Shown here: one piece after another, positions 6,376-41,060 of the stretch
Numbering within the stretch: position 1 is the stretch's first letter
How the letters are laid out: each line of letters begins with the position of its first letter
Virus record (IMG/VR): IMGVR_UViG_3300013121_000017
Coordinates: 160,001-224,000 of that record
Source: a virus
Taxonomy: Duplodnaviria > Caudoviricetes
Strand: one strand, 5' to 3'
Length of the DNA stretch: 64,000 bases
The notes under the pieces: generated by a model
What the model was told of the DNA's origin: nothing
Database searches by the model: none
The model's input: only the letters and a program-made list of their open reading frames with translations
Position numbers and translations under genes: made by a program

Positions 6376-6771
6376 ATGTCGCTACACGATGTTGAAGACA
6401 TCCTCGATTCCTGGGAATCAACCGGACTACTTCAGGACTGTCCTGATCGTTTCAACATGGCCCTCTGCCTGGACACGCAACGCCGGGCCAACGAAAAGTA
6501 CGATCACACGCCGCAGTTCAACCGGGTATCCATCCCGGCCATCCTCAACATCTGCAAGAAATCTCCCGATACATTCCAGGGTCTGGTAGAGAGCGAATGC
6601 TCTGACGTTTATCGTCTCGGGCCAATGCCATGTGGCGATGACGCCGACGTGTGCGCCAAACTCGTCATGCGAGTCCTGAACCTCAAGCTCGACATGATGT
6701 ACTTCGGCGGCATGACGCTCAAAGACGGGATGGTCTACATCCTCACGGATCGCGTTGATTCCAGCACATGA
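6376..6771 (+). CDS. Protein with an N-terminus resembling that of gp23-type major capsid protein
   Basis: W..TGLL / A.CLDTQRRANE / QFNRVSIP resembles MCP W..TGLL / A.LLENQ / F..I.IP (recalled, not searched). Confidence 0.55.
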   Translation: MSLHDVEDILDSWESTGLLQDCPDRFNMALCLDTQRRANEKYDHTPQFNRVSIPAILNICKKSPDTFQGLVESECSDVYRLGPMPCGDDADVCAKLVMRVLNLKLDMMYFGGMTLKDGMVYILTDRVDSST

Positions 6772-7163
6772 CGACGGAACCGTCCGTCCATGTCGCCGAG
6801 AGCCGAATCCTGGGTCGGCTTCGGAACCTTGCCGCCGATCTCGGAATCAATTCGTCGCAACAAGCCAGACAGCATGTAGCGACGTAAACTCGGATCGGAT
6901 TCAGATACGGCTTCGTCGGCCTCGCCGCTGAGTGAGTTGAAGATAGAGACAAGATCATGGGCCAGGGCGTCATCGTCGCTCTGGCTCGCTTTGTTTGAAC
7001 ACCGTTGAAGGGCGTCCTTGAAGTTGTTGATGTGAGGTAGAATGTCCATGCCGGATGATTCGCGACTGGTGGACTGTACCAGGGCGCGACCGAGATTGAC
7101 CTTGGCGTCCATCAAGTCTTCATCGAAAGGCTTCAGTGTGAGCCACTGGGTAAATTCGAGCAT
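6735..7163 (-). CDS. Hypothetical protein
   Basis: TACATA 5 nt before the ATG; MLEFTQWL start. Confidence 0.6.
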   Translation of the reverse strand: MLEFTQWLTLKPFDEDLMDAKVNLGRALVQSTSRESSGMDILPHINNFKDALQRCSNKASQSDDDALAHDLVSIFNSLSGEADEAVSESDPSLRRYMLSGLLRRIDSEIGGKVPKPTQDSALGDMDGRFRRHVLESTRSVRM

Positions 7164-7234
7164 GCAGGTATGTAGAGAAAGAAGCACTCGAAAACGGGGA
7201 TGACATCAAGCCCTAAAAGTGAGAAAATAGACCG

Positions 7235-8053
7235 ATGGACAAGATCATCCTGAAAACCCCCGAGCAGATTGACGGCATACGCCGAAGCTGTCAAGTTGCC
7301 GTCAACGTGTTGAAAGGCATCAAAGACTATGTCCTGCCCGGAATGCGGACCTGTGAACTCAATACCTTGATTGACATAGCCATGCGTCGGATGAATGCCG
7401 TCCCGGCGACCCTAAATTACAAGGGCTATCCCGCCTCGGCATGCGTGTCGGTCAACAACGTGATCTGTCACGGGGTTCCCAACAAAAGAGTCCTCGAATG
7501 GGGTGATGTTGTCAAGATTGATGTGACCACCATCGTCAACGGCTACTACGGAGACACCTGCTACACCTGGGTCGTTGGACAACCCACCTCAGAATCGCAC
7601 AGGATCGTCGCTGCGGCCCGCGCCTGCCTCTGGGCGGGCATACGGGCCGTTCAGCCTGGGAAGCCGCTAGGAGCGATTTCCAGGGCCGTCAGGTTGACCG
7701 CCGACCAATACCGTTGTTCGGTGGTACACCAGTTCTGCGGCCACGGAGTAGGAATCGCCTTCCATGAACCGCCAAATGTGGTGTATGACTCGCTGGTGGG
7801 GTCTGCGGGGCCAATAATGACGCCTGGAATGACGTTCACCATCGAACCTATGATCAACGCCGGTGTCGCAGAAGCGGTGGTGGATGCGGCGGACGGCTGG
7901 TCGGCTTACACGGCTGACGGCAAGTTGTCAGCACAGTTTGAACACACTGTTCTTGTTACCCGAACCGGCTGTGAGGTTCTGACAGACTGGGGTGACGAGA
8001 AGACCTTGTTACCCCAACTGAGGCTACCGGAGGAAATATGGCGATCACACTGA
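7235..8053 (+). CDS. map: Methionine aminopeptidase type I
   Basis: SVNNVICHGVP, DVT..GYYGDT, GHGVG..FHEPP, TIEPM, SAQFEHT. Confidence 0.95.
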   Translation: MDKIILKTPEQIDGIRRSCQVAVNVLKGIKDYVLPGMRTCELNTLIDIAMRRMNAVPATLNYKGYPASACVSVNNVICHGVPNKRVLEWGDVVKIDVTTIVNGYYGDTCYTWVVGQPTSESHRIVAAARACLWAGIRAVQPGKPLGAISRAVRLTADQYRCSVVHQFCGHGVGIAFHEPPNVVYDSLVGSAGPIMTPGMTFTIEPMINAGVAEAVVDAADGWSAYTADGKLSAQFEHTVLVTRTGCEVLTDWGDEKTLLPQLRLPEEIWRSH

Positions 8054-9111
8054 CCGATGAACAGAAAGACGTTGTTCGCAAGATCGTCAAGGGCGTCAAG
8101 ACCGGCAACGAACAAGTTCAGACCTTGGGCGGCTACGCCGGTACGGGCAAAACCACGATCACGACGACGCTACACGCCTTCTTCCCGAACTTCGCAACCT
8201 GTGCCTTCACCGGCAAGGCAGCGTCCGTGATGCGTAGTAAAGGCATGGAGTCAGCAGCTACGATCCACAGCACCATCTACTTCCCACAGAAGGACGAGGA
8301 CGGCAAAACGTTCTTCTACCCGAAGCCGAAAAGCATGCTCGGTTGCGACGGCTTCCTTGTCGATGAAGCATCGATGGTCGGTCGAGACGAATACAACGTG
8401 ATGCTCGACTACGGTCTGCCCATCGTGTTCATTGGCGACCACGGACAGTTGGAGCCGGTCGGGTCCGACGTGAACGTGATGAAAGACCCAATGTACACCC
8501 TGGAGAAGATCCACAGGAACGCCGGTGAGATTGCACACTTTGCCGAACACATCCGCAAGGGCGGCGATGTTCGCCGCTTCCACACCAGCGGCAAGGTTCA
8601 AGTTGCGGACGCATCGGACGCGACGGACGACATCATCACCAACACGGATCAAATCATCTGCGCCTTCAACTCGACACGCAAGGGCGTGAACAACAACATC
8701 CGCCGGCTACATGGTCGAGGCGAAACGGTGGAAGAGGGCGACCGCATCATCTGCCTGAGAAACAACAAACAGGATCAGGTCTTCAACGGCATGCACGCCA
8801 CGGTGTATCAGGTGGACTTGAAACGTCGCAAGATCACTATCGACCTTGACGACGGCGAACGAAAGTGGGATCTGCCATTCTGGCCCAAGCAGTTTGACTC
8901 CGAGTCCACGTTGACTGATGTGGACTACCAGATCAATCTGTTCGACTTCGGCTACTGCATCACCGCGCACAAAAGCCAGGGGTCAGAATGGGACAACGTA
9001 ATCGTGTATGAACAGGTCTGCAAGAAGTGGGATCATGCTCGATGGGCTTACACAGCGGCCAGCCGCGCCAAGAACGGCCTCATCTGGCTCTGTCCTAGCA
9101 AGAGATGGTGA
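8038..9111 (+). CDS. Dda/RecD2-like SF1B helicase
   Basis: GYAGTGKT, VDEASM, GDHGQL, TAHKSQGSE, YTAASRA. Confidence 0.9.
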   Translation: MAITLTDEQKDVVRKIVKGVKTGNEQVQTLGGYAGTGKTTITTTLHAFFPNFATCAFTGKAASVMRSKGMESAATIHSTIYFPQKDEDGKTFFYPKPKSMLGCDGFLVDEASMVGRDEYNVMLDYGLPIVFIGDHGQLEPVGSDVNVMKDPMYTLEKIHRNAGEIAHFAEHIRKGGDVRRFHTSGKVQVADASDATDDIITNTDQIICAFNSTRKGVNNNIRRLHGRGETVEEGDRIICLRNNKQDQVFNGMHATVYQVDLKRRKITIDLDDGERKWDLPFWPKQFDSESTLTDVDYQINLFDFGYCITAHKSQGSEWDNVIVYEQVCKKWDHARWAYTAASRAKNGLIWLCPSKRW

Positions 9112-9114
9112 TTC

Positions 9115-9849
9115 ATGAGTGAGAAATACTACACCGTTCTGGAATACGCGAAGTTGAAGGGCATCGACATCGATGTCACTTCCGCATGTTCGCACGGAAG
9201 GATCTTGACCAAGATGTCCAAGGCGGACGGCAAGACGCCTGTTCCCGTCAAGGATGTCGATTACGGTTCCGTCAACTCCTACCCCGAGTACATCCTCGAC
9301 CTGTACCTCCAGGCTGGCAAGCTCGTCAAACGAATGCCAGAAATGCCCTTTGGCTGCTACAAAGGACAGCCCATCGACCGTGTGGATATTCAGTATCTGC
9401 AATGGTTCGCAGAGAACATCGACGGACACACCGCGTTGATAGAGACGATCAAAAAATACCTCGAAACCCCAGAGGTCGCAGCCAAAATCCAAGCGGCAGA
9501 AGAAGCGAAGGACAAAAGACGCGCGAAGGTCGAGGCCAAGGCAATGGCCATGTCTTCCCTGCGTAAGTTCGCGGACTTCAACGAGGCCACACTCGCCGAC
9601 ATGCGAACGAAAACCAAGTGGAAAGAGATGGGCTACAAGTTGATGCCGGGACAGTACCCATCTGGCCAAACTCAGGGGTGCGAACTGTACCACCGATCCC
9701 AGGTCGAGATGACAGTCGCCCTGAAACAAGAAGAAGAGGAACGCCTCAAGGCCATTGAGGTACTCGACCAGATTCGATCCCAGCAAAATGACAGCTTCAA
9801 TGACTTCGTTCGAGAAATAGAAGAGGCTCTCAACCCAGAGACTCTGTGA
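9115..9849 (+). CDS. Hypothetical protein containing a PFGxYKG (DUF3820-like) module
   Basis: MPFGCYKGQPIDRVDIQYLQWF. Confidence 0.6.
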   Translation: MSEKYYTVLEYAKLKGIDIDVTSACSHGRILTKMSKADGKTPVPVKDVDYGSVNSYPEYILDLYLQAGKLVKRMPEMPFGCYKGQPIDRVDIQYLQWFAENIDGHTALIETIKKYLETPEVAAKIQAAEEAKDKRRAKVEAKAMAMSSLRKFADFNEATLADMRTKTKWKEMGYKLMPGQYPSGQTQGCELYHRSQVEMTVALKQEEEERLKAIEVLDQIRSQQNDSFNDFVREIEEALNPETL

Positions 9850-9915
9850 AGCTTCTGTGAACTTACAGCCCGCCTCCTTTGTCGCGGTCTAAATACTGAG
9901 ACAAAGGAGGTCACA

Positions 9916-10674
9916 TTGGAAAACATACTCATCAGCGATATTCACCTTGGGAGCGATGTCTGTCAAGCAGATGACTTGTGCCATCTCCTAAAGGACATCG
10001 ACCCCGATGTCACAAAGAAGCTCATCATCGTAGGCGACATCTTCGACTCCATCGACCTGCGCCGGCTCAGGAAACACCACTGGAAGGTTCTGTCGCACAT
10101 CCGCCGGCTCGCCGACAAGATCGAAATCATCTGGCTGGCTGGCAACCACGACGGCCCCGCCGAGATCGTTTCTCACTTCCTGGGTGTGCGGGTGTACGAG
10201 GACTGCATTCTTGAGAGCGGCGGCAAGAACTTCTACATCTTGCACGGTCACAAGTACGACAAGTTCATCAACGACCGTCCGATCCTAACAGCAATCGGCG
10301 ACTTCTTCTATTGGCTGTTCCAGAAGATGGACCGCAGCCACTACGTCGCCCGCATGGCCAAGAAGAGCAGCAAGCACTACCTCCGTAACACCGTGTTGAT
10401 TCGGGAAGAAGCGGTGGAGGACGCCTTGAAGAACGGTTGTGACGGCGTGGTGTGTGGTCATACCCACTGTGCCGAGATCACGCCGGTGAAAGTCAACGGA
10501 AAGACCATCACTTATTGCAACACCGGATGTTGGACGGAGAAGCCCCCTACATACATCGTCATCGACGGTGGGGTTCCCCGTTTGGAGGTCTATGTCAGAA
10601 AAAGTGATCCCGTTCAGTGTGGGAGTGATCTCGGCGTACAACCCGCACGGGAAGAAAGCCAAGCCGAAGGATAA
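9916..10674 (+). CDS. Calcineurin-like metallophosphoesterase (LpxH-like)
   Basis: SDIHLG, GDIFD, GNHD, HGH, GHTH; AAGGAGG RBS with TTG start. Confidence 0.85.
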   Translation: MENILISDIHLGSDVCQADDLCHLLKDIDPDVTKKLIIVGDIFDSIDLRRLRKHHWKVLSHIRRLADKIEIIWLAGNHDGPAEIVSHFLGVRVYEDCILESGGKNFYILHGHKYDKFINDRPILTAIGDFFYWLFQKMDRSHYVARMAKKSSKHYLRNTVLIREEAVEDALKNGCDGVVCGHTHCAEITPVKVNGKTITYCNTGCWTEKPPTYIVIDGGVPRLEVYVRKSDPVQCGSDLGVQPAREESQAEG

Positions 10675-10963
10675 CAAGACGGCCCAGGACATGTTGAAGT
10701 CCGAGATCGACGGCATGCGACTGAAGTATGTCGAGCGGGACGGCGCGTACATGGGGCATCAGGAAAAACACCTTCTCATCAAAAACATCTCTCGCCGTGA
10801 GCTTGTCAAGCTGGCCGGTAAGTACCTTCAAGTCGCCGTTCTTTATGGAGAAAGGGATGGAGAAGACTACCGTTTCGACTGGATCGAGGCAGGAAAAACG
10901 GTAAAATACAAGAAGGCGAAAGCGAAGTGGCCGGTCGATCTCCCACGGTTTGACAATACATAG
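10592..10963 (+). CDS. Hypothetical protein (DUF3293-like)
   Basis: ISAYNP motif; GGAGG RBS. Confidence 0.55.
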   Translation: MSEKVIPFSVGVISAYNPHGKKAKPKDNKTAQDMLKSEIDGMRLKYVERDGAYMGHQEKHLLIKNISRRELVKLAGKYLQVAVLYGERDGEDYRFDWIEAGKTVKYKKAKAKWPVDLPRFDNT

Positions 10964-10966
10964 GGT

Positions 10967-11110
10967 ATGGAAAAAATCAGATGTGTGTGGGCCTCACTTG
11001 ATGAAGCCCTGCAACACTGTAAGTGCAAAGACTTCAAGCCCATCAAACCGAAGGTGCGGCCCGTGACGAAGCCCCGAAAACCAGTGAAGACGGGCGGAAA
11101 TGGCAAGTAG
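10967..11110 (+). CDS. Small basic protein (47 aa)
   Basis: TACATA 4 nt before the ATG; fills the gap before the helicase. Confidence 0.4.
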   Translation: MEKIRCVWASLDEALQHCKCKDFKPIKPKVRPVTKPRKPVKTGGNGK

Positions 11111-12530
11111 ACTCACGGTATTCAACGACTTCTCTTTTCTTCAGACGGACAACCTCCATCTGAAGTCGAAGCTCTACCACGCACTCAGACACCGTGAACG
11201 AAACTACTTCCACAGTGCCGCCTACAAGGCCAACCGCTGGGATGGGTTCATCAACTTCTTCACCATTGAGTCGGGAAAGTTCATGACCGGGCTTCTGCCT
11301 GAAGTCATGCTTGCCCTGAAGCGATCCGAAGAGGAATACGAGTTCATCGACAAGCGAAGTGACATAACCTTCGCCTACGAAGAGATCCCGGCCAACTTCC
11401 TCCAGCAGTGGCAACAACCCGGCCAGGATCTGATTACTCTCGAAGACTACCAGTGCCAACTCACCGAGGCTGCGATGAAGTATCGTCGCGGCATCATTTT
11501 CGCGCCTACATCTGCCGGCAAGACCCTGGTTATGGTCTGTATGGTGCGAGCCATCAAGCCCGGCACGCCCACCCTCGTTCTCCAGAATCGACGCGGCCTT
11601 GCCCAACAAAACTACGACGAGCTTGTCAGCCGTGGCGTACCCAACGTCGGAACGTGCTGGGGCGGTGCGATCAAGCCGAACGTCATCACCGTAGCAACCG
11701 TACAGTCGCTGGAGAAGATCAAGAACCTGCTGCCGCACTTCAAGGTGCTGCTGGTGGACGAGATTCACGACATGATGTCCACGCAGCCAAAGAACGTCTA
11801 CAAGGCGATGAAGGGTGCGTGCTTCCGTGTCGCCATGTCGGCCACGCCGTTCAAGTACGGCGAGACGGACAAGGTCCAGAAGTACATGGTGAAGGGTTTC
11901 TTCGGCCCGGAGCTTCTGATTGAAGCGGCGAAGGAAGATGGCGGCAGGCTGACCACCAAGGGCTTGCAGAAGCGTGGCCGGCTCTCGAAGAGTCACTGCA
12001 CCTTCTTCCCGGTGCGTGAGCCGAACCTCGAATACGAACTGTATCAGGACGCCGTCACTTTCGGCATCGCTGAGAACTTCGACTTCCACCACATGGTCAA
12101 GAAGCTGGCCCTGTCCCAGAAGGGTCGCACCTTGATCCTTGTGGAACGCATCGCACACGGGGACGCCCTCAACAACTTGATTCCTGGCTCCCTGTGGGTT
12201 CGCGGCCAGGACAACGACACGACTCGCAAAGAGGTCGTGAGGCAGCTTCAGGTCAACGAGAACTGCATCGCGATTGCGACACAGGGCATCTTCAACACCG
12301 GCATCAACGTCTTCATCCACTCGCTCATCAATGCGGCGGGCGGACAGGCCGAACACCAGATCATCCAGAGGATGGGTCGTGGTCTTCGTACCGCCAAGGA
12401 CAAGACGATGCTCCAGTATTACGACTTCATCTTCTACAACAACGAGTACCTGCTCAAGCACAGCAAGAAGCGTATCCGCACCCTCAAGCAGCAGGGCCAC
12501 GAAATCGAGTTCAAGGACTTCGACCTATGA
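11100..12530 (+). CDS. UvsW-like SF2 DNA helicase
   Basis: APTSAGKT, VDEIH, SAT, QRMGRGLR; WDG.I N-terminal motif. Confidence 0.88.
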   Translation: MASRLTVFNDFSFLQTDNLHLKSKLYHALRHRERNYFHSAAYKANRWDGFINFFTIESGKFMTGLLPEVMLALKRSEEEYEFIDKRSDITFAYEEIPANFLQQWQQPGQDLITLEDYQCQLTEAAMKYRRGIIFAPTSAGKTLVMVCMVRAIKPGTPTLVLQNRRGLAQQNYDELVSRGVPNVGTCWGGAIKPNVITVATVQSLEKIKNLLPHFKVLLVDEIHDMMSTQPKNVYKAMKGACFRVAMSATPFKYGETDKVQKYMVKGFFGPELLIEAAKEDGGRLTTKGLQKRGRLSKSHCTFFPVREPNLEYELYQDAVTFGIAENFDFHHMVKKLALSQKGRTLILVERIAHGDALNNLIPGSLWVRGQDNDTTRKEVVRQLQVNENCIAIATQGIFNTGINVFIHSLINAAGGQAEHQIIQRMGRGLRTAKDKTMLQYYDFIFYNNEYLLKHSKKRIRTLKQQGHEIEFKDFDL

Positions 12531-13672: not shown

Positions 13673-13737
13673 GTTGTGATCCTCCGAAATTGCACCAACC
13701 GACACGGGCAGTTTCCGTGTCGGTTGGTGCGAATTGG

Positions 13738-15279: not shown

Positions 15280-15282
15280 TGA

Positions 15283-15477: not shown

Positions 15478-16142
15478 AGGTAGTTTTTTTCGAGCTTCCT
15501 TGCCCGCCCTTTCATCTCTTCGAGTTCCCTCTCCAGTGCAAGCACACGCTGCTGCGTGGCATCGAAGTAGTCGTCATAGCTGACCCACTGGAACCGCATG
15601 AGCATGTCCGAGATGGTCTGCTCGGGTACGCCGTGGACGGTCTTTTCGCACAGCATCTTGGCGATCTCGCCCGCCTTGACGCGGTCCTGCTCCATATTCT
15701 CCTGCTTCTTGGCCAGGAGGAACGGCAAAACCGTTTCCTTCCACCACGGAGAATCCGGGTAGACGAAGTGGACCGCGTAGCCGTGATCCAGGGCGTAGTC
15801 GAGGTAGATGCGGAAGCCCTGAAGCGAGATGTTCGTGTTGTCCACGATGATGGACTTCGGGAACGTCTTGTCCTTCCACGGTTCCTTCATGCAGGCCAAC
15901 ACTTTGGCCTCGCAGTCGCGGTGGCCCAGGTGAGCCTTCTGAGGCGTCCAGTTCTTCCGGTACTCCTCACCCTCACCGTAGAAGTGATCCGCCGAGAAGA
16001 TCGGGGCGTTGCGAAGCCGCTCGGACAGACGCTGGGCGCGGTGGCTCTTCCCCGTGCCGGGGATGCCACGCATGACGTAGAGATCCAGAGCCTGCCCCTG
16101 ACCGCACATGAACAGTTCCATGTCGAAACCGTGCGTCAACAT
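15474..16142 (-). CDS. P-loop kinase (AAA_33/N4BP2-like)
   Basis: MRGIPGTGKS, SADHF, IIVDNTN, HGVP; GGAGG RBS. Confidence 0.8.
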   Translation of the reverse strand: MLTHGFDMELFMCGQGQALDLYVMRGIPGTGKSHRAQRLSERLRNAPIFSADHFYGEGEEYRKNWTPQKAHLGHRDCEAKVLACMKEPWKDKTFPKSIIVDNTNISLQGFRIYLDYALDHGYAVHFVYPDSPWWKETVLPFLLAKKQENMEQDRVKAGEIAKMLCEKTVHGVPEQTISDMLMRFQWVSYDDYFDATQQRVLALERELEEMKGRARKLEKNYL

Positions 16143-16339
16143 GAAGTATCCTCCATTGATTCCCATTCGAGACTCCACCACGGCGCATCTACGTCACGAT
16201 AGACAAGACGCGGCTTCTTGTAAAGAGGTTCGTCTTGTTTTCGCTCGCCGTACTTGAACTTGTGGTAGAAGATCAGCCCCTTGGGAGACGGCAAAGGCTG
16301 TACGGCCAACAACTTACCGGCGATGAGGGTCGAGTTCAC
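16136..16339 (-). CDS. Mini-protein resembling the Gol region of gp23 major capsid protein
   Basis: LIAGKLLAVQPLPSPKGLIFY vs T4 gp23 LIAFDICGVQPMNSPTGQVF; GTGA-coupled within an operon. Confidence 0.65.
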   Translation of the reverse strand: MNSTLIAGKLLAVQPLPSPKGLIFYHKFKYGERKQDEPLYKKPRLVYRDVDAPWWSLEWESMEDTSC

Positions 16340-16532: not shown

Positions 16533-17447
16533 TTAGTTCCCGTGCCAGGATTCGATGAAGCGGACAGTGCCGCTGTTTGACCGCATGAAGACACTGTGGG
16601 TGATCGGCCCGCGACCGTCCCACCGCACGCCCTTGAGCATCGAGCCATTCGTGATGCCGGTCCCCACGAAGCAGCAAGGCCCAGCAACCAGATCTTCAAT
16701 TCCCAGGATAGGCTCGCCCCAGTCTGGACAATCGTTCGGCCAGACCTGTCCTTGGAAGTGGCCTCCCATGCACTTGATTGCAGCCGCCGTGATGACGGCC
16801 TCGGGTGCGCCACCGATACCGTACTGAATGTCGATGCCAGAGTCAGGCAGACATGCAGCGATACCGGCTGACACGTCACAGTCCTGAATCAGCTTGAGAC
16901 GAACACCCAGCTTGCGAGCCACGGCGACGAAGACATCATGACGGGGACGCTTCAACATGCACACCGTCAACTGGTTTAATGGCTTGTTGAGCCAGTCGGC
17001 AGCGAGCTTCAGATTGTAATCTAGCGGGTGTTCCAGAGATAGACCGGCTTTGGCGAGCCTGGGACCACACGCCAGCTTGAGCATGTAGTGGGCTTCGGTC
17101 GTGAACATAGTGTTGTGGCCAGAGAAAGCCATAACACTCAGGGCTTCAGGTCCGCCCTCGGCAGTAGGTGTCGTTCCCTCGATTGGGTCCACGGCGATGT
17201 CGTAGAGAAGGTCGGGACCAGACCCCACGAACTCACCCTGAAAGAGGCCGGCTGACTTGTCTTTCTTGCCTTCGCCGATCTTGATCTCGGCGCGAATGTT
17301 GAGAGAATCGAGACGCTTTCGCATGGCATCGACTGCCGCTGTGTCTGCGGCAATCTTGTCGCCAGATCCAACCCACCGAGATGCCGAAATAGCGGCAGCC
17401 TCGGTTACACGAACCATTTCAAGTCCGATGTTCTTCAGAGAGTCCAT
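16533..17447 (-). CDS. glpX: Fructose-1,6-bisphosphatase class II
   Basis: VRVTEAAA, IGEG, DIAVDPIEGT, GIGGAPE, TGITNG.ML.GV. Confidence 0.93.
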   Translation of the reverse strand: MDSLKNIGLEMVRVTEAAAISASRWVGSGDKIAADTAAVDAMRKRLDSLNIRAEIKIGEGKKDKSAGLFQGEFVGSGPDLLYDIAVDPIEGTTPTAEGGPEALSVMAFSGHNTMFTTEAHYMLKLACGPRLAKAGLSLEHPLDYNLKLAADWLNKPLNQLTVCMLKRPRHDVFVAVARKLGVRLKLIQDCDVSAGIAACLPDSGIDIQYGIGGAPEAVITAAAIKCMGGHFQGQVWPNDCPDWGEPILGIEDLVAGPCCFVGTGITNGSMLKGVRWDGRGPITHSVFMRSNSGTVRFIESWHGN

Positions 17448-18793: not shown

Positions 18794-19458
18794 TCTTTCG
18801 GAAACAAGTTCCTGTACTCTTCGATCACTTCCGGCTTTGTCACGCCCGAGAGTACCGTCACCTTTGCCCCCAACCTCTGAAGGGTGGGAGATAGTGCGAC
18901 AAAGTAGGGCCGGATGAACCCGAACTTGAGCCACTTGTCAATCTCGCCTGACGTGAACCGCTTCTCAAGAAATTGAGGGGTGATGTCTTCGCCGTACTTC
19001 TTGAGGAAGGCCAGACTGGTTTTCAGATCGGAACGAACCATCTCCATCGAGACTTTTTCTTCTTGTGGATCAGCATTGCCAGCCCGACGTTCGCGGGCTG
19101 CCTTGATCCACTTCTGGTAGAGTCCCCAACGACGTTCGGCTGCCGGGCCGACACACATGTTCGGGGTGACGTAGCACTCCTCATCGTTCTTCTTGCAGAC
19201 GTACAGTTGCGCCCTCATCCAGAACTTCAAATCGGCCAGGGCAACGATACCTCTGGTCCGCCGAATCATTCTGATCATGGCCTTGAATAGTGCTGATTTC
19301 CTTGGATCGCCTGTCCTTCTGAGCGTGTTGCCCGGCCCGAGCCTCATGTCTGGAAAATACTCAACAGTCAGCTTCTGCCATAGCAGCGAAAGCTGGTACG
19401 CCTGAGTTTCCTCTTCTGTCATCTCGAACTGAAGAGGGATGCTGAATAGATCGTCCAC
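18787..19458 (-). CDS. Hypothetical protein
   Basis: 223-aa ORF with GAGG RBS and GTG start. Confidence 0.65.
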   Translation of the reverse strand: MDDLFSIPLQFEMTEEETQAYQLSLLWQKLTVEYFPDMRLGPGNTLRRTGDPRKSALFKAMIRMIRRTRGIVALADLKFWMRAQLYVCKKNDEECYVTPNMCVGPAAERRWGLYQKWIKAARERRAGNADPQEEKVSMEMVRSDLKTSLAFLKKYGEDITPQFLEKRFTSGEIDKWLKFGFIRPYFVALSPTLQRLGAKVTVLSGVTKPEVIEEYRNLFPKDQ

Positions 19459-19636
19459 GTCGCACCTCGCCTTTGGCCTTCCCGGTCACCTTCAGCTTAT
19501 GTAGACGCGCACCCGCCTCTAGCGAATTCGCCAGTTCGGAGTCCGACATAACCTCAAGAGAGGCAATGTACTCGGATTCGGTTTGCATGTCTAGTTCCCT
19601 TCTTTCAAAAAGCGCTCTTGCCAGGAGAGCAGCCAT
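19361..19636 (-). CDS. Small hypothetical protein (start may be 19588)
   Basis: ORF upstream of the 18787 gene; TATAAT-like sequence upstream on the minus strand. Confidence 0.4.
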   Translation of the reverse strand: MAALLARALFERRELDMQTESEYIASLEVMSDSELANSLEAGARLHKLKVTGKAKGEVRRGRSIQHPSSVRDDRRGNSGVPAFAAMAEADC

Positions 19637-19753
19637 GACGTATTATACCACAAACCCGTCTTCTCCTTCAAGACGAAGACAGGGTTCCCGTCCATGTTAC
19701 GCGCCTTCATGACTAGATGCAAAAGTGTACAGTAGTGTACACGTCATTTGGAA

Positions 19754-19782
19754 TTGACGACGTAAAACATGGGGACTACACT
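19754..19782 (+). promoter_or_regulatory. Sigma70-like promoter
   Basis: TTGACG-N17-TACACT. Confidence 0.65.
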
Positions 19783-19830
19783 ACCACTACCGACACTACC
19801 GACTACTACCGACTACTACCCAACTACTTC
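19780..19830 (+). repeat. Short ACTACC(G) tandem repeats
   Basis: ACTACC at 19780, 19786, 19795, 19805, 19815 plus a degenerate copy. Confidence 0.85.
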
Positions 19831-20282
19831 GACTCGGAGTGCATCCGCCTAAAGATGCCTTGTGCCTACCGTGGCTAGTACCCGCTGTTGTAGGTGCATG
19901 TCAAGCCGTGCGGCTGAAACCTGTGAGGGGCTTCGCTCTACTTAGCCAAAGAAAAGGTGTCGGCGTCCTGCGCCGGCATGGATCGGACCACCGGGGCCAA
20001 TCCTATCCTCACAAGTGTTACGAGGTCAGCGGCTGACCACCCCCTAAAAAAGCTGTCGGGGGGCTTGTACTGTCGTCTCGTCACTTTAGGCTCACTTTCT
20101 TCGTGATCCGTCGAGCCGCGAAGTCTAACAGACGGGTAATGCTTGAACGCATAAGCGACGGTTTGGTCAGAAACGTTCCAGTAGCACAAAAAACAGGTAC
20201 GCATGCTCAGAGTACCCATCCTGGGTAATCTCCAAGGTATGCCTTTGCAGTAGGAGTGGGTTCAATTCCCACTCCATTTTTT
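19789..20282 (+). ncRNA. Candidate ~490-nt structured noncoding RNA
   Basis: Promoter upstream, many hairpins, terminal hairpin GGAGTGGG-TTCAATT-CCCACTCC plus T run, no convincing ORF. Confidence 0.55.
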
Positions 20283-32134: not shown

Positions 32135-32156
32135 CGTATACACACAAAGGTGGAAC

Positions 32157-33395
32157 ATGGCCAAGAAGAAGAAAGACGCTGACACCCTCGCCAGTCTCTG
32201 TGCGGACATTGCTGCCAACACGGGCGGCGACGTGGTTGACGATCTTGAGAACGTCACCTACTACATCGACACTGGCAGCCTTTCCCTGAACTATTCCTGC
32301 TCTGGTCGCTTCATGGGCGGCGGCATTCCCGGTGGACGGCTCACCGAGATCTACGGCCCGTCCAGTTCTTCCAAGTCCCTCATCGGGTCCAACCTCCTGT
32401 TCGCGACACAGCGGCTGGGCGGCGTGGCCGTGCTGCTGGACGTGGAGAACGCGATCAACAAGGAGTTCATGAAGAAGGCGTCTCACCTCGATCTGAAGAA
32501 GGTGATTCGCTACACCCCGCCGACCCTGGAAAAGTGCTTCCACAAGATGTACACCCTGATCGAAGCCGTCAGGAAGCGGGACAAGAACGTTCCAATCGTC
32601 ATCATCTATGACTCGCTCACGTCGTCGCCGTGCGAACGCGAACTGCGTGAGATCAAGCTGCCGGACAACTACACCGAAGCCGACTTCAAGCGGATCGTGA
32701 AGGCCCACCGGCAACCCGGCGAACACGCCAAGGCGTGCAGCCAGGAACTGAAGAAGCTCAACACCGTGATGGAACAAAACAACGCCACGGTGGTGATCCT
32801 CAACCAGACGCGCGACAAGATCGGCGTCATGTACGGCAACCCAGAGCAGTCCGGGGCCGGCGGCAACTCGCTTCCCTTCTACGCTTCGCTGCGGCTCCGT
32901 CCGCAGACGCAGAAGAAGATCGAGTACACGCTCATCGGCAAGAAGAAGAAGTGCGTCGGCGTGAACGTCAAGTACAAGAACGTCAAGAACCGCACCTACC
33001 GGCCCTTCGTGGAAGTCGAAGGTATTCAACTGACGTTCGAGAAGGGCATCAACCCGATCTCGGGCCTGATGCTCGCTCTGCTCGACGCAGGCCGCATTCA
33101 GGTTGACGGCAAGTGGTATCGCGTCTGTGACGCCTGGAAGCCGGACGGCGAAGAAGTCAAGTTCCAGACCACGCTGGACGCCAACGAAGTGCCGCTGGAC
33201 GTTCTGCTCAAGTGTCCGCAACTGATCGACGCCGACAGCAAGGAGCAGGTTGAGGAGTACCTCGCTCCGTTCATGGAAGCTGTCCGCTACCTCAAGGAAG
33301 ACGGCGTCTCGGAAACCAAGGTTGCCGAAGACGATGACGAAATGGATCTCGAAGAGGAGATCGAGAAGGCTCTGGAAGATGAAGAGGGCAAATGA
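32157..33395 (+). CDS. UvsX/RecA-like recombinase
   Basis: IDTGSLSLN, GGIP.GRLTEIYGPSSSSKS, DVENA, LNQTRDKIG, GGNSLPFYASLR. Confidence 0.92.
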   Translation: MAKKKKDADTLASLCADIAANTGGDVVDDLENVTYYIDTGSLSLNYSCSGRFMGGGIPGGRLTEIYGPSSSSKSLIGSNLLFATQRLGGVAVLLDVENAINKEFMKKASHLDLKKVIRYTPPTLEKCFHKMYTLIEAVRKRDKNVPIVIIYDSLTSSPCERELREIKLPDNYTEADFKRIVKAHRQPGEHAKACSQELKKLNTVMEQNNATVVILNQTRDKIGVMYGNPEQSGAGGNSLPFYASLRLRPQTQKKIEYTLIGKKKKCVGVNVKYKNVKNRTYRPFVEVEGIQLTFEKGINPISGLMLALLDAGRIQVDGKWYRVCDAWKPDGEEVKFQTTLDANEVPLDVLLKCPQLIDADSKEQVEEYLAPFMEAVRYLKEDGVSETKVAEDDDEMDLEEEIEKALEDEEGK

Positions 33396-33676
33396 GCAAG
33401 GCAATCTCGCTGACGGATCTGCTGTCCGAGTTGGCAGCAGATCCTTCGTTGTATGACGAAGAGGATGAGCATCAGGTTTACTGGGGCGATGTAGATGATC
33501 TGCCATGCAGGAATCGGCATTCCTGTGGCTTCTACTCCAGCATGCGGCTGCGTGTAGAGCCGATGTACCATCTCGGCGATGAGGTGGGCTTCGTGTCGGT
33601 CACCACCAAGAATCGAATCTATCGCCCTTACGTCGAAACAGTTGGTGAGCTTCATGATCAGCCGAAGAGAGTATGA
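33392..33676 (+). CDS. Hypothetical protein
   Basis: ATGA overlap. Confidence 0.55.
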   Translation: MSKAISLTDLLSELAADPSLYDEEDEHQVYWGDVDDLPCRNRHSCGFYSSMRLRVEPMYHLGDEVGFVSVTTKNRIYRPYVETVGELHDQPKRV

Positions 33677-33900
33677 AGCGATTGCGGCCCGGTCCAGAGA
33701 GTGGACCGGGCCGAATACTTGGGGTTGGAACGCCGGCTACCGGCTCGGCCTCAAGCAGACTATCGAGTTGCCCGGCTTTGGGTGACCGAGCTACACTCTC
33801 GCACAGTTGCGCGGGTCGCTGACCGAGATGACGGTCATTCAAGCTCTTCGAGACATCTACAACGCCTACTACAAACTCACCGGCGAGTCTTACATCAAGA

Positions 33901-35251: not shown

Positions 35252-35622
35252 GTCCGTAATCCGTGTTTGGAGAAGTGTCGTCTGATGGTCATGAGAGATA
35301 CTGGCTTGCCCTTCATCAGTTGTTCTCGAATGAAGGCCCGGATCTGCCCTGCCAGTTTTTGTTCGTCGCGACGTTTACTGGCTCGTTCAGTGGCCGGCAA
35401 GTGCTTTTTGACGATCTCATACTTGACCTGACCCCTGATGCCATCCCCCTCGCACAGGTTGGTTGCTAATTCATTCATGTCCAACAGATGGACAGGAACT
35501 TCGGTATCGACCGTGTAAAGCCTGCCGCCAAACGTGTTCGCGTACTCGATTAGAAGAGGGTAGTTCTTGCAGGCGGTGAGGAACTCTTTCTTTTCGGGTG
35601 TTCGGACCAAAAGACAACGCAT
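35149..35622 (-). CDS. Hypothetical protein with a C-terminal wHTH-like region
   Basis: GGAGG RBS; VQRVGHGVY wing motif. Confidence 0.6.
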   Translation of the reverse strand: MRCLLVRTPEKKEFLTACKNYPLLIEYANTFGGRLYTVDTEVPVHLLDMNELATNLCEGDGIRGQVKYEIVKKHLPATERASKRRDEQKLAGQIRAFIREQLMKGKPVSLMTIRRHFSKHGLRTCTISNHYAFIRRQLKTKGMNVQRVGHGVYQRKD

Positions 35623-35703
35623 GAAGCCTCCATTGATTTCCTTTGTCATTCTAGTCTCCGCAGGCGGGGTAGAATGCAGTAGTATCTGTGAACTGGAGAT
35701 GAC

Positions 35704-36630
35704 GTGAGATTCGATTATTGTCGCAGGTTTGGCCTAGAGGCTGAAGTCAACGCATTCGACGGGCTGAGTCATCCGGCCCAGGAAGGCGCTTTGCCGGCTG
35801 GAATCCAGGCTGTGGCCAACATTGTGGCCCAGACGCTCAAAACGCGGTGCGAGATTTACAACTGGATCAACGGGCAGAAGGCAACCGACTTCAACCCATT
35901 CTGGGTCGTCAAACCGGATGGCAGTTGCGGGATGGAAGTTTGTTCTCCCGTTAGCAAGGGCTTGCGTGGCATTGATCAGGGGGCCGCTGTTGTGGCAGCC
36001 TTACGGGACAGTCGTCTGGTCAAAGCAGACGGGCGGTGTTCGCTTCACGTTCACACCGAAGTAGCAGACCTGGGAACCGAGCAGATTGCCTCGGTGTTGG
36101 CGCACTGGGTCAAGTGCGAGTATACGATGCTTCTGGCAATGCCCGACCGTCGCAAGAAAAACCGCTACTGTCAACCAATCGGCATGTCAGATTTGCTTCG
36201 CGCCGATCAGTTGTTGCCGCCGGCCATGCTCATCAACCGTCTGGGAGCGTACAAATACTACACCGCAAACGCCTTCCATTACAGCCGAAGCAAGCGACCG
36301 ACCATAGAATTCCGCATCGCCGACGAAGAGGCGTGTCTGAATCCGTACTACTTCAGAAACTGGTGCAAGCTGATCATTCATTTTGTGGAGCTTGCGTCTG
36401 AAATCCCATATCCAAAGGATTACAACCCGAACGATCCCAACTCGGGGTACTTGTGGTTGTTCCCAGAGGACGTGTTGAAGCTGTTGAAGTTTGACAGACG
36501 CGACAAACTTTGCCCGGAACTTCAAGAAACGTGTGACTGGTTCGTGAAGCGGATCAATGACAATAGACACAGTCAGCTTGGCGGCATCTGGGATGACAAG
36601 GTCGTTGATGCCGTGTGGCAGCCTAAATAA
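35704..36630 (+). CDS. Putative amidoligase (COOH-NH2 ligase family)
   Basis: FGLEAE, W.VKPDGS, EVCSP, CSLHVH, TIEFR. Confidence 0.82.
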   Translation: MRFDYCRRFGLEAEVNAFDGLSHPAQEGALPAGIQAVANIVAQTLKTRCEIYNWINGQKATDFNPFWVVKPDGSCGMEVCSPVSKGLRGIDQGAAVVAALRDSRLVKADGRCSLHVHTEVADLGTEQIASVLAHWVKCEYTMLLAMPDRRKKNRYCQPIGMSDLLRADQLLPPAMLINRLGAYKYYTANAFHYSRSKRPTIEFRIADEEACLNPYYFRNWCKLIIHFVELASEIPYPKDYNPNDPNSGYLWLFPEDVLKLLKFDRRDKLCPELQETCDWFVKRINDNRHSQLGGIWDDKVVDAVWQPK

Positions 36631-36643
36631 CGCGGAGGCTAAC

Positions 36644-37111
36644 ATGCTGCTGGTATACAAACAAGAACCACTCGAAAAAATGGTAGCTCAGATGCGTCGG
36701 ATGGGTGAGATGCTCATTCCTCACACCTACCCGATGACGCCCAAGTCTGAAGCTGAGGACATCGCTCCTCTCAAACTGCGTGAGATGATGGTGGACGGCT
36801 ACCAGATCTACGTCCAGTACAACAAGGGAAACTACGGCGAGTATTTCCTTGAGTCGGTTGAGATCATCAACAAGAACGCGCCATTTTTGCCGTTCGTACT
36901 CGTTTGCAAGATAGGAAAAGCTTTCCTTGGTGACAAGCACTTGGCTTACGTTTCTTTCTGGACTGACAACCGTCGCCACTACGTCTGGACTTTAGCCAAG
37001 GATGAGGAAGATCAGCCCATGCCTGGGCCGTACAAGGTGGAAATGGAATCGAACCAGTATGAAGGGCTAGAATACGATGTCTTGCCCAACGGTGGCGTGA
37101 ACTTTCACTAA
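36644..37111 (+). CDS. Hypothetical protein
   Basis: TAAATA and GGAGG upstream. Confidence 0.7.
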   Translation: MLLVYKQEPLEKMVAQMRRMGEMLIPHTYPMTPKSEAEDIAPLKLREMMVDGYQIYVQYNKGNYGEYFLESVEIINKNAPFLPFVLVCKIGKAFLGDKHLAYVSFWTDNRRHYVWTLAKDEEDQPMPGPYKVEMESNQYEGLEYDVLPNGGVNFH

Positions 37112-37176
37112 TTTACTGGGGTACAAACGTGTCCACAGTTGACACCACTAGAATGAAGTACCCGAATGGAGGATAC

Positions 37177-38511
37177 ATGAGCAAGAACGAATGGCTCAAA
37201 AGAGCCGAACAACGTAAGGCAACAACCACCAAGAGCGTCCGCGAACGAGCCGCTGAATCCAAGAAGGTGGTAGAGAACATCAAGAAGGCCGTTCCCGATG
37301 CAACTGTCTTCGTGAACTGCTGCACCCGCGACAAGATCCAGATCAAAGACGGTCGGGTCGAGTTTCTGGAGCCTGGAACGCCGCCGGCTCGCCGTGTGTA
37401 CACGTCCGAGGCTCTCGAAGAGAGCCTCAGCCAAGATGATCTACTCCACGAACGCTGGCATCAGCCAGCTACAGATGAGGACATCTGCGTTCCGATTCGC
37501 CCGACTGCGGAAGCCAAAAGGTACGACCACCTTCAACTGATGGAAGACGCGATGGTCGTCTACCAAGTTGGCAGAAGCGAACCCAAGGGTCCGACTGGTC
37601 CAGTCGGAGAGCCAGGGCCGCAGGGCTGTCCCGGCGAAGACTATCTGGGCGAAACCGAAGATGTGGCTTACTTCAAGAACAAGCTGTTCAACGCCATGAA
37701 GATGCCGAAGGAAGTCTCGAAGAAGCTGGCTTCCGAGGACATCAAGTTCGCGCGGGAGTACGAGAAGCAGACTGGCGAATCGCTGTGTGAGTGGAAGGAG
37801 TTGAACTCCAAGGAACTGATGCAGCAGGCCAAGCTTCAGAAGTTGGAAGAACTGAAGATCCAAGTCATGTCGCAGAACCCGTCTTACCTGGGTGTGCCTG
37901 CGTCCCAGTTCAGCAGTTCGGTTTCTATTGGGAGCCAGGGTTTCCAGGGGTGCATGACGCTAAGTGGTCAGAACAACAATCAGCAGTTCCACTACAGCGG
38001 CTCATGTGACACCCTCCAGAAGGGAACTCCGATTCATTTCCAGCCAGAGCAGATCAGCTACCACACCATCGGGGAAGACCGTCGCGTCTTCAGCATCGAG
38101 GTGAAGCCCGAGAACTCTGAGAAGTTCATCGAGAAGCTGAAGGCTGAGTTCAGGAAGAAGGCGTTGAAGAACGTCGAGGCTCAGGCTGCTGATTCTGAGA
38201 TGTGGTTCGCCCCGAACGGTCTGAATCGGGGCAACATCCCCAACATCATCGACGTGTTCGCTGACATCGCGGCGGAAGCCTACATTCAGGTGTCTGCTAA
38301 GGTGGACAAGATGTGCAACGAGGTCTTTCTCGACACCGGCTTCACGATCAACACGCCGCCTCCAGAGGGTATCGTCGGGGCCGGCAGTATCACGATCACC
38401 GCGACATCGCCGACCCTGATGGCAGACTCGATGATCGGCGGAAGCATCATCAGTGGGCCTACTCTGTCGCCGGTCAACGGGGACTATAACATCAACATCG
38501 GCGGATGTTGA
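37177..38511 (+). CDS. Mosaic protein of shuffled gp20-type portal motifs with a collagen-like linker
   Basis: LQLMEDAMVVY, LGETEDVAYFKNKLFNAMKMP, EDIKFAR, RRVFSIEV out of canonical order; GGAGG RBS. Confidence 0.7.
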   Translation: MSKNEWLKRAEQRKATTTKSVRERAAESKKVVENIKKAVPDATVFVNCCTRDKIQIKDGRVEFLEPGTPPARRVYTSEALEESLSQDDLLHERWHQPATDEDICVPIRPTAEAKRYDHLQLMEDAMVVYQVGRSEPKGPTGPVGEPGPQGCPGEDYLGETEDVAYFKNKLFNAMKMPKEVSKKLASEDIKFAREYEKQTGESLCEWKELNSKELMQQAKLQKLEELKIQVMSQNPSYLGVPASQFSSSVSIGSQGFQGCMTLSGQNNNQQFHYSGSCDTLQKGTPIHFQPEQISYHTIGEDRRVFSIEVKPENSEKFIEKLKAEFRKKALKNVEAQAADSEMWFAPNGLNRGNIPNIIDVFADIAAEAYIQVSAKVDKMCNEVFLDTGFTINTPPPEGIVGAGSITITATSPTLMADSMIGGSIISGPTLSPVNGDYNINIGGC

Positions 38512-38546
38512 TGGAATCGCTTCGAGCGATTTTTGGAATCTTTCTG

Positions 38547-38660
38547 ATGCTCATTATTGACGGGCATCCGAAGGAAAAAGCCTGGGGCTGCGGATGTTTG
38601 GTCGCGGTCCTGGGTATTTTGAGTTTGGCTGGTTACGGCCTGTACAAGCTCTTGTTGTAA
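38547..38660 (+). CDS. 37-aa membrane peptide
   Basis: GCGCLVAVLGILSLAGYGLY hydrophobic stretch. Confidence 0.4.
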   Translation: MLIIDGHPKEKAWGCGCLVAVLGILSLAGYGLYKLLL

Positions 38661-38703
38661 GCCTACCGGCGGGTAATCACCGGATTTGTGTCCGATAATT
38701 GGA

Positions 38704-38735
38704 AACGGCGATGACAGAGGTCATCGCCGTTTTTT
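38704..38735. terminator. Bidirectional terminator
   Basis: AAACGGCGATGAC-AGAG-GTCATCGCCGTTTTTT between convergent genes. Confidence 0.8.
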
Positions 38736-39150
38736 ATTCTTCCTTCGGCTTCTTTGGCTTCTCGCCCGCGCCGGGCTTGTACTCTTTGCCAACTTTCCAG
38801 TTTCGCTTCACATCTTTGTGATCCCAGTATTTGCAGCACATACGCTCGGTGACAACCAGTTCAAGGTCTGGGTGCTTGCAGAACATCATGCCGCCGCTCT
38901 TGTCGGCGGCATACTTGCAGTTGCCGCAGTTCGTGCCTTCGATCTTCTCAGGCAGCACAATCAGGTCGGCGTGCTTGAATTTCTTGACCTGTTCTTCGGT
39001 GGTTGGACGGATGCCGTGATCCGGCGTGAACTCGCCGGGCGTCTCCGGTGTCTTCGCGTCTTTTTCGGCTTTGAGCCAGTCCTTGAAGGTTCCCATGACA
39101 GTAGTTATGCCGAAGCCGAGGGGCATTTTTTTGAAACTTTTTGGGTCCAT
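38734..39150 (-). CDS. Protein with a HiPIP-like Cys motif
   Basis: NCGNCKY..FC..V....CCKYW; TATAAATA 7 nt upstream. Confidence 0.6.
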   Translation of the reverse strand: MDPKSFKKMPLGFGITTVMGTFKDWLKAEKDAKTPETPGEFTPDHGIRPTTEEQVKKFKHADLIVLPEKIEGTNCGNCKYAADKSGGMMFCKHPDLELVVTERMCCKYWDHKDVKRNWKVGKEYKPGAGEKPKKPKEE

Positions 39151-39157
39151 CTTCGTC

Positions 39158-39165
39158 TATTTATA
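39158..39165 (-). promoter_or_regulatory. T4-type late promoter
   Basis: Exact TATAAATA on the minus strand. Confidence 0.6.
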
Positions 39166-39233
39166 TTGACGGGAATGACTGGATAGTCAGCCCGTAACCA
39201 AGTGATACGTCATTGGTAACCAAAGGAGGCAAT

Positions 39234-39734
39234 ATGACCAATGCCCTTGCGCGTAGGCGCAACCCCAACTCGTCTCTTGTTCCCTTTCGTGACGAGTTCT
39301 TCTATCCCTTTCAGCAAGCGTTCGACAGCATCTTCAACGACTTCTTCTCTGAGTCGGGGATGTCCTCCGTGCGTGGCCGATTCGGCTATCCGAAGCTGGA
39401 CTCCTACGTCAGTGACGGCCTTTACGTCGTGGAGGTCGCAGTCCCCGGACATACCAAACAGGATGTTCGGGTTGAAGTCTCCGAGAGAGACGGAGCGAAG
39501 CTCCTCAAGATTTCGGGGAAGATGGCTGAAGACTACCAGAACAAGGACGAAACCACCTATTACGTTCGTGAACTACGGCGAAGCAACTTCGAGCGGTGGC
39601 TCACCGTACCCGAGAACGTTGAAGGCGACCCGGATGCGGTTGTGAAGGACGGCATCCTGCGGCTTACTTGGAAGCTCAAGAAGGAAGAGGTTCCAAAGCT
39701 GGCGGGCCGCGAAATCGAGGTTCGCGAAGAATAA
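39234..39734 (+). CDS. Hsp20 small heat-shock protein
   Basis: YPKLD..VAVPG, REL..S.FER, A.VKDGIL; AAGGAGG RBS. Confidence 0.92.
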   Translation: MTNALARRRNPNSSLVPFRDEFFYPFQQAFDSIFNDFFSESGMSSVRGRFGYPKLDSYVSDGLYVVEVAVPGHTKQDVRVEVSERDGAKLLKISGKMAEDYQNKDETTYYVRELRRSNFERWLTVPENVEGDPDAVVKDGILRLTWKLKKEEVPKLAGREIEVREE

Positions 39735-39743
39735 CGGAAACGC

Positions 39744-39778
39744 AAACAGGGCATGGACAAACCATGCCCTGTTTGTTT
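39744..39778 (+). terminator. Intrinsic terminator
   Basis: AAACAGGGCATGG-ACAAA-CCATGCCCTGTTTGTTT. Confidence 0.75.
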
Positions 39779-39789
39779 ATGATGCGTCG

Positions 39790-40071
39790 ATGAGAACGCC
39801 ATTCCGAAAGGGCGTTCGCGTCGTTATCGCGAACGACATGATGATGATCGCTGGCCGCGTTACCGACCCCAAGTACGACCTCGGGGAAGGAAAATGGGGC
39901 GTGTGGGTCATGATCCACCCACAGCCCCAGTTCGATGATTTTGTGCGTGATACAGGCCAGTTCCAATGCGAAGTTGACGTGTGCCACGCCCACGGTGTAT
40001 TCAAGGGTTACACTGGGCCGAGCAAACCTGAGCCAGACGGCAGCATGGAAGTGTTTGTCGTGCCTCAGTGA
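39790..40071 (+). CDS. Hypothetical protein
   Basis: ORF filling the gap. Confidence 0.5.
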   Translation: MRTPFRKGVRVVIANDMMMIAGRVTDPKYDLGEGKWGVWVMIHPQPQFDDFVRDTGQFQCEVDVCHAHGVFKGYTGPSKPEPDGSMEVFVVPQ

Positions 40072-40569
40072 TTACTGACCGTAATTGCAGCCTTCCATGT
40101 CATACTCGTAGCTGATCACGATCCTGTGACGACCCGGCGGCTTGTTGAAGGTGAGGCTTAGTTCCCCAGTCGTCAGATTCAATTCACCAGTCTTGGCAAA
40201 CACGTCCGAAACGTCAAGGGCAAACTTGACGGCCCCAAACTCAAACTTGCCGCTTGAGGAGACAGTAAAAGTCTGGATGGGTTTGGTTCCTGGGTCTTCC
40301 AACTGGATCGTACCAGTTAGCGTACCGGCCAGAACTGGTGTATGTTCAAGGATGAAATAGGAGAACTTTTCGTGGCCATTGTTGTACTGGGTTTCGCCCT
40401 GAACGAATTGGCTGGAGTAGAAGATGTCGAGGTTGGCGCAACCGTAGTCGCCCTGCATCATGCTGAATTCGTCGTCCTGGGGGAATCCTCTGTTCTTTTC
40501 TTTGGATTTCTTCAGCCAGTAGTTGTCAGGCTGTTGGGTGTAAAGACGTTCTCGGTCAAAGATGGACAT
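40072..40569 (-). CDS. Beta-rich protein resembling a major capsid protein insertion region
   Basis: GFP.DD..ANLDIFYSSQFVQ, LEHTPVLAGT.TG, LTTGEL, SYEY.ME (recalled MCP similarity); AAAGGA RBS. Confidence 0.55.
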   Translation of the reverse strand: MSIFDRERLYTQQPDNYWLKKSKEKNRGFPQDDEFSMMQGDYGCANLDIFYSSQFVQGETQYNNGHEKFSYFILEHTPVLAGTLTGTIQLEDPGTKPIQTFTVSSSGKFEFGAVKFALDVSDVFAKTGELNLTTGELSLTFNKPPGRHRIVISYEYDMEGCNYGQ

Positions 40570-41060
40570 TCTTTCCTTTCGTGATTGACGTAAGTGGCTT
40601 CCATGAACCGCCAGACGATGTTGATTTCCACGTCGGCCCGCGACGAGTAACAAAGCTCGCCGAAGTCCACGGTATGGGGCCATAGTCCCTTGAGGGTCCA
40701 CTCCTCAATCATAGTGCCGGACTGCTTGTGCCAGCGTTGAAGGATGCCCTCACCTAACTTACACGCCACAGACTTCATCAACTCGTCGGGGTCTTTGGCG
40801 GTCTTGAATACTTCAGCGCCAATCTCGTAACAGTTGACGAGGATCGGGCAGATGTCAGGGAACTCGCTAGGTATCTCTTCCGGCCAGAAGTATTCGACGC
40901 GGAGCGGCAGCCAGCGGGTCTTCCCAGGACGTTTTGTGCCGTCCGGGTCAACGATTTCCTCAACGAGCATCTTGGGACGCTCGGGGACTTGAACGACGTG
41001 GTTCTTGGTGGTGTGGTTTGGGAACTTCGCCTGGAAGTAGTAAATGAAGGTGTCACGCAT
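40512..41060 (-). CDS. Divergent gp19-like tail tube protein paralog
   Basis: RP....EE..PGK.RW, IEEWTLKGLWP..VDFGEL.YSS. Confidence 0.7.
   Translation of the reverse strand: MRDTFIYYFQAKFPNHTTKNHVVQVPERPKMLVEEIVDPDGTKRPGKTRWLPLRVEYFWPEEIPSEFPDICPILVNCYEIGAEVFKTAKDPDELMKSVACKLGEGILQRWHKQSGTMIEEWTLKGLWPHTVDFGELCYSSRADVEINIVWRFMEATYVNHERKECPSLTENVFTPNSLTTTG

Follow-up and report, generated by a model that had tools for sequence, protein, structure and literature searches.

We analysed a 64,000-nucleotide stretch of viral DNA (the window; bases 160,001-224,000 of the linear 261,680-bp virus record IMGVR_UViG_3300013121_000017), in which a sequence-only reading had picked out five open reading frames, between window positions 6376 and 41060, as dispersed genes made from fragments of virion structural proteins. 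All five exist, are unbroken and score as coding, and four of them carry pieces of capsid or portal. These pieces are old domesticated duplicates that have been copied repeatedly into accessory operons and retained by selection at the protein level. Many such genes, three of the five among them, also bear one of two short shared tags, and we tentatively propose that the pieces serve as baits for host immune sensors.

Capsid and portal pieces in separate genes

The record is a fragment of a T4-like megaphage, estimated to be ~52% complete. The window contains none of the genes for its true major capsid protein (MCP; 490 aa), portal (852 aa, with an intein), protease, terminase, sheath or tube. 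Aligned to the genome's own structural proteins the five genes gave significant matches, and reversed sequences gave 0 matches at E<=0.003; the window pieces are 33-52% identical to their own-genome counterparts. Family models name none of the five beyond the donor match, and PADLOC and NCBIfam gave no match for the five proteins. The three MCP pieces are consecutive and non-overlapping, as the sequence-only reading had claimed, and correspond to MCP 8-70, 74-103 and 107-254. Each MCP-piece gene covers 6-30% of the MCP and lacks a complete N-arm/E-loop/P-/A-domain chain; the A-domain interval is covered by no MCP piece in the window, and A-domain pieces are present in relatives.

The gene at 40072..40569 (minus strand; 165 aa) encodes a stand-alone MCP insertion domain, 44% identical to MCP 107-254 (E 3e-32). 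Its borders are identical in seven genes, and its model is a beta-sandwich with best structural matches to the P1 head (9ukm; Z 8.7, rmsd 3.2 over 100) and the S6 capsid (7x30; Z 8.0). On this identity, these shared borders and these capsid-insertion matches, the protein is a capsid insertion domain; the earlier assignment holds, with the true start moved to the ATG at 40569, as set by an ortholog. The protein is hypervariable (44-46% amino acid identity to orthologs, dN/dS 0.37-0.56), and its identities to MCP are concentrated at MCP-invariant columns (31/41, 76%, versus 39/93, 42%, elsewhere; p 0.0004). Its dS is two to three times that of its neighbours, which indicates allele exchange. A small heat-shock protein gene (39234-39734, plus strand) lies between this gene and the mosaic described below, and is absent from the syntenic locus L006 of a relative.

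The 131-aa protein encoded at 6376..6771 (plus strand) combines a segment matching MCP 8-70 (33% identity, E 7e-5 in the search of the genome's own genes) with a following strand, helix and hairpin. It had been taken for an MCP N-terminal segment, which is right for MCP 8-70 but leaves out part of the gene: the family comprises ~30 clusters, mostly of 125-170 aa, and several members fuse MCP 14-77 to MCP 257-333. Alignment to MCP with hhalign gave 98.2%. The predicted structure is confident (pLDDT 91.7, pTM 0.86), and six HK97-fold entries, including encapsulins, the 80alpha capsid and gp24, stand among its top 30 structural matches, although these are weak (Z 3.1-3.8, rmsd 3.3-3.8 over 84-90 residues) and Z alone is not significant. 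Foldseek searches with the model against PDB and BFVD returned nothing at E<=0.001, and Atlas structure searches returned only leads below 0.9. Mainly from its sequence, we read this gene as probably a deleted capsid that retains a stand-alone P-domain-like core. Its dN/dS against relatives is 0.14, and it carries neither shared tag. Genes for CsrA and a dual-specificity phosphatase lie upstream (5660-6365).

The 67-aa gene at 16136..16339 (minus strand) joins MCP 74-103 (50% identity, E 2e-7) to a C-terminal tag, and its stop and start overlap both neighbouring genes. It had been called the MCP Gol segment. The Gol region, which we take to be residues 94-122 in T4 gp23 numbering, maps to ~62-90 of the phage's own MCP; the gene, which begins at MCP 74, contains the second half of this region and the following strand, but the N-terminal half forms the end of the 6376 match, and the region is thus split over two genes. 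None of the window genes carries the whole 29-residue equivalent in one chain, which is whole in a gene of a 533-kb relative (G003:58150). In the Gol/Lit/EF-Tu system a short conserved MCP stretch likewise binds alone as a peptide (PMC3014915), and the genes at 16136 and 6376 overlap its equivalent; Gol, however, sits inside gp23 and activates defence, whereas here its equivalent is divided over two free genes. Two orthologous proteins are known from protein comparison, one identical and one ~90% identical. The operon is headed by glpX, encoding a fructose-bisphosphatase (16533-17447).

The fourth gene (37177..38511, plus strand) encodes a 444-aa mosaic with an N-terminal tag (37183..37197, plus strand), five portal segments in shuffled order (profile positions 554-578, 491-507, 582-637, 715-777 and 508-561) and then a tail-sheath segment (own sheath 614-648, encoded at 38197..38301, plus strand; 64% over 22 aa). 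The segments score 7-27 bits each, against 5.5 bits for the best of 20 shuffles searched with 169 profiles, and a collagen-like linker joins two stem-like portal segments. Syntenic orthologs occur in relatives (L006, L007 and G001), the G001 version being shorter and joining protease and portal segments. The ortholog in a relative of ~87% DNA identity has an extra prohead-protease segment (E 3e-12) and two further portal segments, and portal N-terminal segments are present in mosaic orthologs; the mosaic and its ortholog share 68% of amino acids (dN/dS 0.32). The description as a shuffled portal mosaic is borne out by the five segments but is too narrow, as sheath is present here and protease in orthologs. 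With its segments out of order, covering 17% of the profile and mixed with sheath or protease, the protein is not a collinear wing-stem-clip-crown portal chain of the kind that could build a dodecamer.

The fifth gene (40512..41060, minus strand; 182 aa, untagged) shares 58 nt with the gene that follows it. Its inclusion among the fragments did not survive comparison with the tube: it aligns at 33% identity over ~145 of the 187 residues of its own tube (phrog_4542 E 7e-6), retaining by sequence the whole gp19-like fold, with an absent N-terminal arm and a hairpin about three residues shorter. Because most of the tube aligns, and because phages of this clade often have tube paralogues away from the tail cluster, we regard it as a paralogue that is probably not part of the fragment-gene set. 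It is 90% identical in amino acids to its ortholog (dN/dS 0.13). The slot between the nucleotidyltransferase gene and the tube paralogue is variable, as in one relative an unrelated 171-aa gene (L263:457-972) is inserted there.

Age, recurrence and shared tags

Across seven genomes we found 18 MCP-piece genes, which are 29-88% identical in protein to their own MCP and match it at 91 of 302 synonymous third positions (30%), close to chance. With synonymous sites near saturation the pieces are not recent copies, and they are not nucleic-acid mimics. The genes are conserved and not neutral: orthologs are syntenic, and dN/dS is 0.13-0.56 for the four window genes that could be compared with orthologs at the DNA level (neighbours, 0.03-0.31). 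The mosaic (68%) and the insertion-domain gene (44-46%) diverge far more in amino acids than most neighbours (88-100%), and modules are gained and lost. We rejected an origin from one second MCP gene that broke up and dispersed through the genome, since relatives carry other or overlapping pieces, and rate and architecture vary from piece to piece. We also rejected a candidate RecA piece at 33392-33676 (weak, 36% over 53 columns, without a profile match, and absent in L006). A late-type TAnATA promoter is enriched genome-wide, but the five starts, most of them operon-internal, have none within 110 nt.

Of 12 long relatives examined, 8 have MCP matches beyond the true MCP, and the 533-kb genome (G003) has seven. 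Five are found in the closest named record, the unannotated 595-kb uncultured huge phage LR756511.1, whose MCP is 78% identical. Relatives are encoded on 372 viral stretches in all, the best 80 of them at 81-96%. The interval MCP 40-120 is among the most frequently copied, and pieces of scaffold, neck, protease and terminase are also found. Outside the window, a C-tagged gene carries MCP 419-474 (L002:6920-7126, minus strand), near a second dispersed tube paralogue of 178 aa and 25% identity (L002:7566-8102, minus strand); a 78-aa gene carries MCP 287-322, the spine-helix region (L004:12023-12259, plus strand; phrog_138 E 0.002). Directly 3' of the portal gene of our record (G000) is a 266-aa ATPase-only copy of the terminase (L001:9048-9848, G000 19048-19848, plus strand), 41% identical to residues 74-313 of its own TerL with Walker-like motifs mostly retained; the other seven genomes have no second copy.

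Two tags recur on such genes. The C-terminal tag, a basic stretch followed by YRSIDDPW, occurs on ~30 genes, nearly always a few residues from the C-terminus, and is conserved as protein while its synonymous codons vary. The N-terminal tag, KNxWL followed by basic residues, has 23 N-terminal occurrences, against 0 in reversed sequences. Tags are found on 13 of 18 MCP pieces and on 37 of 2811 (1.3%) other small genes, an enrichment that is partly circular, as seven MCP pieces seeded the C-tag matrix, although most carry the motif in its exact form. Among the window genes, the mosaic and the insertion-domain protein (at residues 15-19) carry the N-terminal tag, and the 16136 gene carries a weak variant of the C-terminal tag (16178..16213, minus strand), whose score of 17.6 is close to the reversed-control maximum of 18.1 and is backed by a profile match (E 0.008). 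The exact C-tag pattern was absent when searched for in LR756511.1. Beyond the capsid, tags mark pieces of protease and of non-virion proteins: three C-tagged pieces resemble the gp32-like single-stranded DNA-binding protein (SSB) and one a PrkA-like kinase (G003 13789 and 36315, G004 99953; G003 247046). Four consecutive C-tagged small genes, each overlapping the start of the next, lie at L168:17817-18784 (G003 517817-518784), two of them with MCP pieces.

Three readings of the tag were tried and rejected. A DNA repeat or recombination site is ruled out by synonymous variation, serine being encoded by both AGY and TCN; a copied host motif, by an exact scan of 185,579 genomes that gave 3 matches, two of them phage DNA inside bins and one unrelated. 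A sliding-clamp motif is not supported, as none of the genes that carried the tag in the scan was a replication or sigma gene. The internal proteins of T4 that bear the capsid targeting sequence (CTS) are similar in being unrelated small proteins with a common terminal tag. KNxWL, however, has no F at -3 and continues into basic rather than acidic residues, and the second tag is C-terminal. A CTS-like N-terminal leader is found on 121 genes in eight genomes (13 in the control), 19 of them in this genome; none of the five genes is among these 19, the F-x-x-aromatic-L motif with acidic end being absent from them and the logos differing. Eight window genes have the leader (6735, 17954, 38734, 41090, 50613, 51119, 61314 and 63211), including those for a tRNA nucleotidyltransferase and a PrkA-like protein.

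Other features of the window and its relatives

A tRNA with a TAT anticodon, called as Ile by ARAGORN, lies at 2859-2948 (plus strand). Elsewhere in the record a DnaE-type polymerase is split into two separate open frames (G000 231009-236396), as in G004, and no PolB was found; the 533-kb relative has no DnaE match despite its rating as complete. In one bin, 45 kb of phage resembling this relative is joined to an Acidobacteriaceae chromosome (L297-L299; G014 contig 5, from ~889 kb). We rejected this contig as host evidence, as the junction lies mid-phage without a tRNA and is likely chimeric. A second bin (Chloracidobacterium) likewise holds contigs of the phage clade; the two bins together are a weak host hint, possibly due to chimera or misbinning.

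Possible functions of the pieces

We suggest, with a probability of about 0.4, that these genes encode bait-plus-tag competitive binders against host immune sensors. The pieces come from those parts of virion and packaging proteins that are most conserved and that bind partners, and a bait would bind whatever binds the unassembled subunit; the tag, which most of the genes carry, presumably attaches to a partner shared by all, or determines where the protein goes or how fast it is degraded. Inside the infected cell the pieces would then occupy or divert sensors of unassembled capsid, portal, protease and sheath without activating them. Host sensors head the list of candidates because Avs sensors are triggered by MCP, portal, tube and terminase, which they bind as monomers (10.64898/2026.01.04.697583), because the prohead protease is a CBASS cue (PMC13728456), because DSAD1 sets a precedent by competing at the trigger site of DSR2 (PMC11087589), and because two of the genes change fast. 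DSAD1, a small protein encoded by a phage, vies with the tail tube, a virion trigger, for the sensor site, which is the mode proposed here; in contrast to DSAD1, the present genes carry sequence derived from the triggers themselves, occur many to a genome and share tags. A fuller version appears doubtful to us, namely a modular, renewable decoy library in which megaphages place conserved epitopes of their own immune-triggering proteins in mini-genes, a common short tag routes the bound sensor to inactivation or blocks its oligomerisation, and the mosaic is a multi-epitope decoy that serves for several sensors simultaneously.

The protein-level retention of the pieces, their recurrence, their tags and a bias among their donors also speak for the bait reading. 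In a donor census that compared profiles of 169 core families with all called genes, fragment matches came 39 times from virion or packaging proteins, which make up 27% of core residues, and 23 times from others (rate ratio 4.5; 2.6 without MCP, p 0.002), with a few targets counted twice.

Several points weigh against the bait reading. The division of donors into virion and non-virion proteins was our own. No other core gene is as conserved as MCP (87%; the others, 71% or less), which inflates the detection of its pieces. A single genome supplies most of the C-tag count (G003, 22 of 29), and the tagged SSB-like and PrkA pieces, with tagged genes that have no detectable donor, do not derive from recognisable virion proteins. 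What Avs sensors recognise is a folded core, contacted over a wide surface, and the part of MCP bound by Avs7/8/10 is the A-domain (10.64898/2026.01.04.697583); the window pieces lack this domain, and the Gol region is split. Shuffled segments of 17-60 residues are unlikely to rebuild the portal fold, and such short segments would suit motif-reading rather than fold-reading sensors. Faithful pieces, finally, could activate a sensor instead of blocking it.

The same parts may instead act on assembly, with the tag recruiting a protease or anchor. Their targets would be scaffold, protease or subunits not yet assembled, either those of a relative infecting the same cell, which would be excluded, or the phage's own, for timing or quality control. 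Such a role fits the retention of conserved subunit-contact parts, the scaffold, neck, protease and terminase pieces and the truncated capsid module modelled for the 6376 gene. We nevertheless consider it unlikely: MCPs of the clade are 82-96% identical, so that a poison would hit self; the window pieces are themselves only 33-52% identical to own proteins; and the tagged non-virion pieces are left unexplained. Satellites do encode small proteins that bind capsid subunits and thereby interfere with head assembly (P4 Sid and Psu, SaPI CpmAB, PLE TcaP); those proteins are satellite-encoded and are not pieces of the helper MCP or portal.

Improbable to a similar degree is a mixture of exapted domains with no common system, in which the tube paralogue would be an accessory tail subunit, the insertion domain a free Ig-like adhesion or decoration domain and the 6376 protein a new small fold. 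The five genes do differ in age, rate and architecture, the 6376 gene and the tube paralogue are untagged, dispersed tube paralogues are common in the clade and beta-sandwiches like the insertion domain occur in many virion proteins, but tags tie three of the five genes to ~50 others, and MCP pieces were captured repeatedly and independently. Less probable again is a role outside immunity, in which the pieces would titrate or redirect the housekeeping factors of the host to which newly made virion proteins bind, such as EF-Tu, chaperones and proteases. The Gol region, the most conserved part of gp23, binds EF-Tu (PMC3014915), MCP 40-120 is often copied and a small heat-shock gene lies at 39234; yet the Gol region is here divided between two genes, and titration explains neither the fast allele exchange nor the sheath and portal segments. 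Neutral recombination debris, an assembly artefact, or DNA or RNA decoys for CRISPR are largely refuted, for although duplication is frequent in large genomes, open frames, synteny and dN/dS <1 recur in independent samples, and saturated synonymous sites exclude recent copies and mimicry.

A second capsid-derived gene per genome is known from T4 gp24 and full-length gp23 paralogues (PF07068; PDB 1yue); gp24, however, has a whole HK97 fold and sits in the shell, whereas the present pieces are 67-165 aa long and lie outside the head cluster. Literature searches for fragment decoys or shared tags found no description, and we regard the fragment-plus-tag gene design as new in kind. Pattern-recognition sensors detect virion proteins in which a phage has little room for change, and few counter-measures are known. 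If the bait reading is true, decoys would be a general answer, and the copied segments would map the epitopes that hosts sense, including those of sensors not yet found. Even if the pieces are not decoys, a recurrent fragment-plus-tag design with two undescribed motifs is a new and testable class of small genes in huge phages.

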